A stretch of 47,159 bases of DNA from a virus. Taxonomy: Duplodnaviria; Caudoviricetes. Position numbers and translations under genes: made by a program. The notes beneath the pieces were generated by a model. That model was not told the origin of the DNA, ran no database searches, and worked only from the letters and a program-made list of their open reading frames with translations. The stretch covers positions 1 to 47,159 of IMG/VR virus record IMGVR_UViG_3300008097_000010; one strand, given 5' to 3'. Shown here piece after piece: positions 37,863 to 41,568 of this stretch. Position 1 is the stretch's first letter; each line of letters opens with the position of its first letter.

Positions 37863-37995
37863 TTAGTCGTTTTTAAACGGGGGCGAACGGGGACGGGGGG
37901 ACGGACGGGCAACTGGCATATCACGAACCCACTGTGCCACCTCACCAACTGGCATACGTCTACTTTTATGAGACGTATGCCTAACGAACGACTAA
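37863..37995. other. GC-rich structured non-coding element
   Basis: Closing inverted repeat TTAGTCGTT/AACGACTAA, four G-runs at 37879-37909, a palindrome copy at 37933-37956 and an 11-bp hairpin at 37951-37981. Confidence 0.6.
37933..37956. repeat. 24-bp palindrome, copy A (no adjacent -10 box)
   Basis: TGTGCCACCT-CACC-AACTGGCATA, with an extra half-site at 37911-37920. Confidence 0.75.
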
Positions 37996-38585
37996 TAGTT
38001 GTCGGCATATATTCTGCCACTATCTAACAGGGTGTAGTCGTCCTCATAGATATCCGCTACTTGTTCCCAGAAGTTAGAGCGATCAAGGCAGTTTTGAAAC
38101 CATGACGGCATAGTTTTAAACACTTCATAATAAGCGTCACGAGTCATCTCTTCGGCAAATTCTTCCATTGTCTGACCAATACCTGCAAGGCGTTCGGTCA
38201 TCTCTGTGACTGCCTCGACTCCATAATGACAGGCAAATTCTCTGGTTTCTTCTTCTCCTTCTTCTTCTGCTATGATGTCATAGTCTTCCTTATCTGCTAA
38301 TTCAATAAAACTAAAGTCTGACCAATCATCACACCATTCTACAACGTCCTCCCGTGTGTAGAGTCCTTCTGTAAGGTCGTCCGATGCCTTAGCGATTGCT
38401 TGATGAATTTTTCTACGTCTCCAATCGTATACGCTCTCAGGATCTTTCATGAAATCATCAGGAGCGAAATTTAAAAGAAACAACTGATGACCGATTTGCT
38501 CACGCTTTCCTGGAAACTTCTTATCGAAATAGTATGATTCTTTGACTTGATCATACAATTTTTGTGCTGTTGCTTGGTGGTTCAT
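37992..38585 (-). CDS. Acidic hypothetical early protein (197 aa)
   Basis: Long ORF with a palindrome-linked promoter and a TTCCCCAAATG start context. Confidence 0.85.
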   Translation of the reverse strand: MNHQATAQKLYDQVKESYYFDKKFPGKREQIGHQLFLLNFAPDDFMKDPESVYDWRRRKIHQAIAKASDDLTEGLYTREDVVEWCDDWSDFSFIELADKEDYDIIAEEEGEEETREFACHYGVEAVTEMTERLAGIGQTMEEFAEEMTRDAYYEVFKTMPSWFQNCLDRSNFWEQVADIYEDDYTLLDSGRIYADNY

Positions 38586-39158: not shown

Positions 39159-39253
39159 ATTATAAGGGTATTTTTATGGGTATTGCGTTCACAATGTGCC
39201 AGTTCATAAAGTGGCACAAGATCGGTAGATTTCGGTGTTGGTAGGATTATAAT
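39159..39253. promoter_or_regulatory. Bidirectional palindrome-linked promoter (copy C)
   Basis: Palindrome at 39195-39218; minus-strand TATAAT at 39159-39164 (30 nt away) and plus-strand TATAAT at 39248-39253 (29 nt away). Confidence 0.8.
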
Positions 39254-39667: not shown

Positions 39668-39831
39668 TTGGGGAATTAGTTGTTTAACTATTAATATGAT
39701 GCCATGAATTAATAGACCTGTCAAGCAATTCATTCAAATATATTCATTTCAACATTGTATAAAATGTACATAGACATATTTTTAATTATGCTTTAGACTG
39801 AAGGTAGACCCTAAAATAATTGAGGTTGTAT

Positions 39832-39860
39832 AAAAAAACGCCTACCTTAGAGGTAGACGT
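39832..39860 (-). terminator. Rho-independent terminator, near-duplicate of 39343-39371
   Basis: AAAAAAACGCCTACCT-TAG-AGGTAGACGT on the plus strand. Confidence 0.75.
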
Positions 39861-39920
39861 AATTTTTGTCATGCCTCCAACGTGTAGGTGTTGGAGGTGG
39901 TGTTGTCTCTTTTGGAGTAG

Positions 39921-40073
39921 TCATGCTGGAACATTAGCGAAGAACTTTTGCTGTAATGAGTCGTATGCCTCCTGATCCATGTGGTCAGGGATTCCAACGT
40001 CATCAAAGAAATTAAACATATCTAACAATGCTTGATCCTCATCACAGGTAAAAGAATAGTTGTAACGATCCAT
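39921..40073 (-). CDS. Small acidic hypothetical protein (50 aa)
   Basis: Manual translation MDRYNYSFTCDEDQALLDMFNFFDDVGIPDHMDQEAYDSLQQKFFANVPA. Confidence 0.75.
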   Translation of the reverse strand: MDRYNYSFTCDEDQALLDMFNFFDDVGIPDHMDQEAYDSLQQKFFANVPA

Positions 40074-40074
40074 T

Positions 40075-40200
40075 TTAGCACCTGTTAATCATTTTTTGAG
40101 TTTCAGGGTCTATTTGCTCATAGTAACCCGACTCCATATTGTCGGGTTCTTTGTAGTCTCCTGAGTAGTCAAAATCTGGTGTGTAGTCTTCTGGGTTCAT
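40075..40200 (-). CDS. Small acidic hypothetical protein (41 aa)
   Basis: Manual translation MNPEDYTPDFDYSGDYKEPDNMESGYYEQIDPETQKMINRC; TTCCCCAAAAATG context; its stop abuts the next ATG. Confidence 0.7.
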   Translation of the reverse strand: MNPEDYTPDFDYSGDYKEPDNMESGYYEQIDPETQKMINRC

Positions 40201-40226
40201 TTTGGGGAACTGGTAAAGGTTTATAA

Positions 40227-40348
40227 AAGGGGCAACTCAGTTTGGCAGTCTGAGATTAAATCCTATCGGATCGCCTTGCCCCTTATGTGTTGTTGAGAGG
40301 GTTTACGCTCTGACCATTCAGGCACTCGCCATGTTATCCCTCTCAACA
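40227..40348 (-). ncRNA. Candidate two-domain structured RNA or 5' leader
   Basis: Begins at the predicted TSS of the TATAAT at 40354-40359; two 58-nt domains closed by 11-bp and 9-bp stems. Confidence 0.6.
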
Positions 40349-40353
40349 TTTTT

Positions 40354-40389
40354 ATTATAAAGGATAATAGATCGTTTTCTATTATCCTT
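40354..40389 (-). promoter_or_regulatory. -10 box TATAAT abutting an 11-bp stem-loop
   Basis: AAGGATAATAG-N8-CTATTATCCTT at 40360-40389 immediately upstream of TATAAT. Confidence 0.65.
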
Positions 40390-40398
40390 AACATTCTT

Positions 40399-40809
40399 TT
40401 AATATCCTAAAGCGATGCCAGAATAAAAAGGTATTCTATTCTTTGCATCTTCAGTAAGTTGAACGAACCACTTCCAATTATGTTGGTAAACTTTTTGTCC
40501 TGAGTTACCAAAGCAGTCAAGTAATGCGTTCAACTTCCTTTTTGTTGTGGTAGTATAGAAACCGTCAAAATTATCTAATTCTACTCCTCTTGTATTAATG
40601 CCTTTGGTGTTGTAGTCTCCGCTAATCGTTTGCCTACCGTCAAAGAGTGTTATATGAGTAGGAAACTTTACCGCAATTAAGTTATTATGATAATAAACTT
40701 TTGCGTTCTGACCTTCCATAACAACTGATGTTGTACCCTCTGACCAATCATAACCGCCAAAAACAGCGTCAATCATGTTCTGGTCAATTTGTCTATGTTG
40801 TGAATACAT
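40399..40809 (-). CDS. Conserved phage early hypothetical protein (136 aa)
   Basis: Likely start MYSQHRQID at 40809 (TTCCCCATG); VYYHNNLIA, T.TTKRKLNALL, VYQHNWKWFV. Confidence 0.85.
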   Translation of the reverse strand: MYSQHRQIDQNMIDAVFGGYDWSEGTTSVVMEGQNAKVYYHNNLIAVKFPTHITLFDGRQTISGDYNTKGINTRGVELDNFDGFYTTTTKRKLNALLDCFGNSGQKVYQHNWKWFVQLTEDAKNRIPFYSGIALGY

Positions 40810-40830
40810 GGGGAAAATTGCTGATGTCCC

Positions 40831-40925
40831 ATTATTGCCTATTTTTCCAGACATGACCATAAGCAATGTGACAGTTAAAAAAGTGGCACAAGGAGCGTTG
40901 TTTTAGGTTTCAAATGGTTTATAAT
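40831..40925. promoter_or_regulatory. Bidirectional palindrome-linked promoter (copy D)
   Basis: Palindrome at 40867-40890; minus AATAAT at 40831-40836 (30 nt) and plus TATAAT at 40920-40925 (29 nt). Confidence 0.78.
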
Positions 40926-41026: not shown

Positions 41027-41122
41027 ATTATACCACAAAAATCTCATTTGTCAAGTCGCCTTGTGCCAGTTCATAAAGTGTCACAAGGTCTATTGACTTT
41101 AAGCATAAGGGTGTGCTATAAT
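41027..41122. promoter_or_regulatory. Bidirectional palindrome-linked promoter (copy E)
   Basis: Palindrome at 41062-41085; minus TTGACA-N16-TATAAT (41054-41027) and plus TTGACT-N18-TATAAT (41093-41122), both with an extended TG. Confidence 0.8.
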
Positions 41123-41398: not shown

Positions 41399-41427
41399 AT
41401 TATAGCAGATCTCGAACAGTTTGTCAA
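41399..41427 (-). promoter_or_regulatory. Perfect sigma70 consensus promoter
   Basis: TTGACA-AACTGTTCGAGATCTGC-TATAAT (17-nt spacer, extended TG). Confidence 0.9.
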
Positions 41428-41473
41428 CACGAAGATCTCGAAGAGATTAGTACGAACGAACTATCATATTTAT

Positions 41474-41502
41474 ATTATAGCAGATCTCGAAGAGATTGTC
41501 AA
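41474..41502 (-). promoter_or_regulatory. Perfect sigma70 consensus promoter (tandem copy)
   Basis: TTGACA-ATCTCTTCGAGATCTGC-TATAAT. Confidence 0.9.
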
Positions 41503-41568
41503 CCCATAAAACACGAAGATCTCGAAGAGATTTTATGTCTGGGTTTCACGAAAAAATCGCCCCGTGGG

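Follow-up and report, generated by a model that had tools for sequence, protein, structure and literature searches.

The element considered here lies in a single 47,159-base virus contig, referred to below as the window, which encodes T4-type neck, tail and baseplate proteins. Prochlorococcus phage P-SSM2 is the closest cultured-phage relative of its gp14 (72%), and the window is a P-SSM2-like cyanomyovirus contig. The element is located in a run of small minus-strand ORFans interspersed with sigma-70-type promoters and terminators, a layout that points to a hypervariable early region. Reading along the minus strand, an upstream early gene of unknown function (40399..40866; phrog_554, PHROGs E 9.6e-23), whose relatives span 319 phage records, cyanophages nearly throughout, is followed by a predicted sigma-70-type early promoter at 40354..40381 (-35 TAGAAA, weak, 10/12; -10 TATAAT ending at 40354). 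Transcription is predicted to start at approximately 40349-40347, and a first folded unit of 58 nt, D1 (40291..40348), begins 5 nt past the TATAAT box. An A/C-rich linker of 6 nt (40285..40290), resembling the inter-module linkers of related arrays, separates D1 from a second 58-nt unit, D2 (40227..40284). Beyond D2 lie an acidic ORFan of 41 aa (40075..40200; 11 D+E, 3 K+R), not tied to D2 and with only two close relatives, an acidic ORF of 50 aa (39921..40073; phrog_15219), and a predicted intrinsic-terminator-like hairpin with a T-run (39838..39860), the likely end of the transcript.

Several other features of this region deserve mention. A 12-bp inverted repeat (40360..40389) spans the promoter's -35 box and spacer; it is listed as terminator-like on the plus strand, resembles the promoter stem-loops (PeSLs) of T4-type phages, and may attenuate read-through. 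The palindrome GTGCCAC..GTG(G/T)CAC recurs upstream of early promoters at 40889, 39217 and 38668 (minus strand), with a similar one near 41075, and is present in nearly all related loci too; the promoter driving D1 is without it and has the 12-bp hairpin in its place. Two perfect TTGACA-17-TATAAT promoters, 75 nt apart, occupy 41399-41530 (minus strand) within repeated TTCGAGATCT units, possibly operator sites. At 37992-38585 (minus strand), 1.6 kb downstream of the element, lies the gene for an acidic protein of 197 aa that weakly matches an anti-restriction family (phrog_36653, E 4.5e-5).

An earlier note on this DNA had proposed a two-domain structured RNA at 40227..40348 that starts at the promoter, and the two units are indeed found at these positions, the start itself being a prediction. 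The leader is as unusually long as that note held: 153 nt separate the -10 box from the next start codon (40200), and for the promoters near 39163 and 38630 this distance is 25-26 nt. The D1+D2 region, at 49% GC against 33% GC in the window, folds with -45.2 kcal/mol (z -4.5; none of 200 shuffles equals it), and the single units reach z -3.7 (D1) and -3.0 (D2). Among 122-nt segments across 37.5-47 kb, however, 6 of 156 reach z <= -4.8 (12 shuffles each). As such values are unexceptional locally, fold energy by itself proves little, and the reality of D2 has to rest on covariation. ARAGORN finds no tRNA or tmRNA gene in the element, as anticipated.

D2 was drawn as a three-way junction, and comparison of its relatives bears out all three stems: P1 of 9 bp, P2 of 4 bp and P3 of 4-5 bp. 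The comparison draws on 30 distinct gap-free sequences, collected by pattern scans of viral and metagenome contigs followed by a fixed-length regular expression, which would also discard variants of differing length. True D2 copies made up 10 of 118 loci matched in one scan and 12 of 20 in another, the remainder, mostly chance matches, being discarded by that expression, and neither the patterns nor the inclusion expression demanded pairing in P2 or P3. Two-sided changes occur in 11 of 22 pairs (four in P1, three in P2, four in P3). Counted over alignment cells, they number 49; shuffles give 15 (0/500 reach 49) and slid registers no more than 7, all such counts being uncorrected for phylogeny and drawn from contexts that include close relatives. 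Across the 30 sequences, P2 and the first four P3 pairs are intact in every cell, and RNAalifold recovers the same three stems. The P2 loop is GNNA in 29 of the 30 sequences, the loop of one variant (L185) is swapped to UUCG, and all G-U pairs fall on the strand of the promoter. On this comparative evidence, D2 is a real RNA family whose three stems are kept by compensatory changes.

The core of D2 is also strongly conserved. Its 58 columns include 26 that are invariant, in part dictated by the search patterns. GGCG and TGCC are nevertheless retained in 14 of 14 matches even with a pattern leaving them free, and TTAA in 12 of 12 true matches when it was likewise left free. A 4-bp pseudoknot reaching the P3 loop is predicted, in line with the earlier suggestion that GGCG could pair with TGCC. 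Since the bases concerned never vary, this pseudoknot is compatible with the alignment but unproven by it, and a second register serves equally well. In register A, GGCG pairs with the loop; in register B, GGCA pairs with the loop and GGCG with the 3' strand, which exchanges the two GGCR and two UGCC runs of D2 and scores alike.

These observations bear on whether the cassettes work as RNA at all. GNNA loops are stable in DNA as well, and the cassettes could conceivably act as DNA or as simple attenuators, providing recombination joints and punctuation between early genes in the manner of PeSLs. In the available portion of the report on phages RB49 and phi1, PeSL cassettes combine a sigma-70-like promoter with a stem-loop, lie in hyperplastic early regions and are sites where neighbours have been exchanged (PMC2839356). 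The hairpin at 40360-40389 fits that description, as a stem-loop overlapping a sigma-70-like early promoter, so that the promoter itself carries a PeSL-like structure; the early region is hypervariable, and neighbours are swapped at the cassette edges. D1 and D2 are different. PeSL hairpins occur within the promoter or next to it, in repeated copies, and act as terminators, mini-circle formation being a further trait of these cassettes (PMC2839356, same portion), whereas both units follow the predicted start and D2 has no conserved T-run after it. Unlike the PeSLs, repeated many times per genome, D2 is multi-stem and single-copy, with one copy in the window and one in each of four of five contigs, all of them fragments of 8-41% completeness; what is swapped in this case is the RNA units. 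Together with three covarying stems, strand-specific G-U pairs and the UUCG swap, this makes a role at the DNA level quite improbable.

Less is to be learned from the relatives of D1, which is a rare unit and also occurs without D2. Its 11-bp closing stem stands as drawn in the earlier note, while the two mini-hairpins placed inside it, GGC/GCC and TGA/TCA, do not: RNAfold predicts neither of them and instead gives one irregular hairpin within the closing stem. The element is present as contigs in four marine RNA runs (X1 to X4), and two contigs of run X1 carry a D1 variant, read from a contig loose end at 40320, in which a clean 5-bp hairpin extends from UGCC onward and the TGA/TCA pairing is lost. 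This variant with one hairpin favours the single-hairpin fold, and the interior of D1 is probably a single irregular hairpin. Four viral scans for D1 homologues gave only one further locus (L146) and near-identical copies. In L146:762-845, the purine-rich 5' stem arm of D1 is duplicated by an insertion of 20 nt, and contigs in runs X2-X4 share this inserted form, followed by D2. Other matches to the D1 pattern were set aside as chance, namely those in L303, L324 and L325 and 75 in bacterial genomes, none of which has the D1 flanking bases and none of which is cyanobacterial by title. Also set aside was a 43-aa frame over D1 (40263-40394), which starts upstream of the promoter and in which the 20-nt insertion of L146 falls.

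The sequence of D1 does offer one coding possibility. A Shine-Dalgarno-like purine run, an AUG at 40332 and two back-to-back 4-codon frames are directly visible in it, and both the AUG and an in-frame final stop persist in the X1 variant, as might be expected of a mini-gene that occupies ribosomes. Against this, the 11-bp stem sequesters the purine run and the X1 variant lacks the internal stop; a mini-gene is hardly credible.

It had also been pointed out that D1 and D2 are both 58 nt long and both contain GGCGA and TGCC. Length and motifs are as described, but kinship does not follow from them: the D2 model, tried on D1 as a possible relative, finds no D1 (E <= 5 in the window; E <= 1 in L146), and as far as sequence comparison can tell the two units are unrelated. 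In one locus (L135), a D2 core sits inside a closing stem closely like that of D1.

Whatever their origin, the two units are found separately, and they are hence two independent cassettes rather than one two-domain leader. For instance, one phage (G001, locus L123) has only D2 and another (G002, locus L146) only D1, with the promoter and the upstream gene (75% over 75 aa) shared between the two. The peptides downstream of this D2 and this D1 are not linked by blastp, though the genes start alike, and the case for a swap therefore rests on the upstream gene and promoter. RNA-run contigs from three studies (X2, X3, X4) carry D1 followed by D2, with two differences and L146-type flanks. Furthermore, one X1 contig represents the window's own locus with D2 missing (joint 40212-40301) and the peptide gene present.

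The surroundings of D2 were compared across 38 distinct contexts, which include close relatives and so do not represent independent genomes. D2 begins 4-12 nt past a -10-like hexamer in 15 of them. What comes after it varies: a gene starts 19-35 nt further on in 16 contexts, the products falling into 11 unrelated protein groups by blastp, and the early-promoter palindrome, recognized by a regular expression drawn up in this analysis from the window's repeats, appears within 11-72 nt in 20. The remaining two are one contig end and one longer non-coding run. Apparent first ORFs in four promoter-followed loci (L139, L191, L240, L248) start before the promoter motif and cross it, and are read as spurious. 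A hairpin with a T-run follows D2 in L150, L258 and L311. Many contexts are arrays in which A/C-rich linkers lie between several folded modules and D2 comes last; how many other modules there are, and of which kinds, differs from phage to phage.

This distribution is difficult to reconcile with a riboswitch or attenuator controlling the two acidic peptides, the function first proposed for the leader. It is true that the element sits between the predicted start and the first gene, that its fold is aptamer-like, and that D2 has the conserved, covarying fold with an invariant core expected of a riboswitch. Yet just 2 of the 38 contexts, both near-identical to the window phage, have the first peptide of the window after D2, 20 of the 38 lead to a promoter motif instead, and the X1 contig described above keeps the peptide gene without D2. 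A relative of the 50-aa ORF in L122 has no D1 or D2 within 600 nt upstream. Across the 38 contexts, D2 holds no consistent position before functionally related genes, nor does it possess an expression platform. It is not called as a terminator, a U-tract (at least 5 T in the next 8 nt) follows it in 6 of 38 contexts and in 4 those 8 nt contain no T, so that this feature is not conserved, and start codons 19-35 nt past the stem are not masked by it. With no gene link and no expression platform, a gene-specific riboswitch or attenuator fails and is by now very improbable, being largely refuted; the alternative of a stand-alone noncoding RNA, which the earlier note had also offered, is supported.

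The contrast with RNA motifs already described from these phages is instructive. The manA, wcaG and PhotoRC-II motifs (RF01745, RF01761, RF01717) are RNAs of T4-like cyanophages proposed to be cis regulators, according to the available text of PMC2864571. As described there, they resemble D2 in being covarying noncoding RNAs of marine T4-like cyanophages, found by comparison and with a putative function, but the genes that follow them are related and belong to metabolism or photosynthesis. D2 is tied to no gene, occurs in mix-and-match arrays at early promoters and has no Rfam match. Indeed, the Rfam search that had been suggested gives no assignment to a known family: Rfam 15 has no match in the window at the gathering threshold, with manA, wcaG, glnA, PhotoRC-II, riboswitches and ribozymes all included. 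At E <= 10, the interval 39700-40900 gives 11 matches, none at gathering, of which only a snoRNA match (E 8.4) overlaps the element. In the related loci, two weak sub-gathering matches fall outside D2 in one set of 8 loci and there are none in another set of 13, and the array modules in the loci scanned match no Rfam family.

Small self-cleaving ribozymes such as twister, pistol, twister-sister, hatchet and the HDV-like family are compact pseudoknotted folds with invariant junction bases and no gene link. D2 is like them in size, in its predicted pseudoknot within a compact three-way junction, in its invariant junction bases and in its indifference to neighbouring genes, and it is conceivable that D2, perhaps together with D1, is an undescribed ribozyme cutting early transcripts into units. 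Unlike those families, D2 has no Rfam match even at E 10. A cut at the start of a transcript or just before its terminator would free little, and the literature on cyanophage self-cleaving ribozymes shows no such RNA in its titles and abstracts. Self-cleavage thus appears improbable.

Comparison with cultured phages by blastn yields no D1 or D2 match beyond chance, and the D2 model, run without a positive control, finds D2 in none of 10 phage records (P-SSM2, P-TIM68, S-SKS1, S-SM2, S-SRM01, ACG-2014f, P-RSM6 and three single-cell viruses), a negative of little weight. No paper describing the D1 or D2 RNA was found among titles and abstracts, and the available portions of PMC5737381, PMC7368042 and PMC9964418 hold no description of it. 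D2 may figure without a name in supplement files 1 or 2 of an IMG/VR screen for candidate structured viral RNAs (Fremin et al. 2023; PMC10690425); the exact motif has no match in the 7 of its supplement files compared. The exact motif is also absent from 8 supplement files of PMC2864571, in which gapped alignments can hide one. Within the literature and supplements compared, D2 is an undescribed RNA family in a modular cassette layout.

Which function would account for a specific core that is kept, a position at early promoters, independence of the neighbouring genes and exchange between phages? We read this combination as a sign of decoys or aptamers that serve host takeover or counter-defence, and put the chance that the cassettes are early stand-alone structured RNAs of this type at a little under one half (roughly 0.45). 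Under this decoy or aptamer reading, host RNA polymerase would start transcription at D1, and each cassette would fold alone, with a GC-rich closing stem and an A/C-rich linker to the next. Nucleases could then trim the transcript down to the stable units. The invariant junction and loop bases of D2 would form a pseudoknotted pocket or surface, through which the RNAs may bind a protein or small molecule of the host during the opening minutes of infection. As a first guess, the partner would be a protein of host defence or RNA decay. Recombination among early-promoter cassettes would shuffle the RNA units like small early genes. The setting is suited to such a role, with a hypervariable early region, acidic ORFans and the weak phrog_36653 anti-restriction match. 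Phages are known to employ RNA decoys, including the pseudo-ToxI of PhiTE (PMC3475682) and the Racr RNA anti-CRISPRs (PMC10651486), which in the available parts of these reports are small noncoding RNAs binding a host protein and provide a model for the putative action of D1 and D2. Those RNAs mimic a known host RNA (ToxI and the CRISPR repeat, respectively, in the same parts), whereas no likeness of the element to a host RNA was found through Rfam.

The principal competitor is a role in cis, in which the cassettes stabilize or process early transcripts at their 5' or 3' ends, whatever the gene, by blocking nucleases or marking a cut. Such a role needs no gene link, and cassettes located right at either end of a transcript suit it just as well: the counts of D2 placed first after a -10 box (15 of 38) and before the next promoter motif (20 of 38) are in keeping with it. 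Protection from RNase E matters in phage-infected Prochlorococcus, according to the available part of PMC3113571. A plain hairpin would suffice for this purpose, yet nearly half of the D2 columns are invariant, even if partly set by the patterns; neighbouring early genes manage with leaders of ~20 nt; and no obvious object of protection is seen in L248, where D2 is flanked by a -10 box and the following promoter. We consider end protection unlikely, though it deserves more weight than the other alternatives discussed above.

The decoy or aptamer reading can be extended to the arrays as a whole. P-SSM2-like cyanophages may carry an arsenal of shuffled folded RNAs, aptamers or decoys each directed against a different host protein or signal, a tentative proposal that we regard as rather unlikely in this full form. 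If it were true, the arrays would be an RNA counterpart to the anti-defence protein repertoire, and if the cassettes are decoys or aptamers at all, a layer of RNA effectors has gone unnoticed in phage early regions. Should D2 self-cleave or block nucleases instead, it would be a new ribozyme or stabilizing fold. In either case, D2 is a new and well-supported RNA family of ~58 nt from viruses that infect the most abundant phototrophs in the ocean, one that is small enough for direct probing, cleavage and pull-down work. The larger point is the layout, in which folded RNA units come, go and replace one another behind early promoters much as small genes do.

Run X1 offers a weak hint that the element is abundant as RNA. 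Of 30 bins, that at 40255-40371 ranks first in summed contig depth (793), and the flanking coding bins at 39904-40137 and 40372-40839 have depths of 0.9-8, these values being contig-based, including sums from other phages and possibly DNA. Bins with the repeated promoter palindrome are high too (330, 162 and 107).

Other folded modules were encountered in the related loci. A second conserved module, with 13 distinct versions, lies 30-120 nt upstream of D2 in 15 loci (L129, L133, L136, L139, L156, L168, L171, L179, L191, L206, L212, L217, L221, L244, L258). It contains a stem of 3-4 bp with four kinds of concerted change between its arms, as well as a possible pseudoknot and a terminal hairpin. 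Nine loci (L129, L136, L150, L179, L191, L221, L258, L311, L316) share a scaffold of 35-103 nt in total with a GGGCA-like opening, a TAAG(T/A)CCC close and varied inserts, a pattern that suggests a common bulged helix with exchangeable domains; it was not found in the early region of this window. Further unrelated folded modules occur before and after D2 behind an early promoter, in L316:700-1000 and, downstream of D2, in L135. Finally, a conserved hairpin resembling a tRNA T-arm, beside a second stem, was met by chance through the D1 pattern in unrelated phages (L413, L423, L428-L430 and related contigs).
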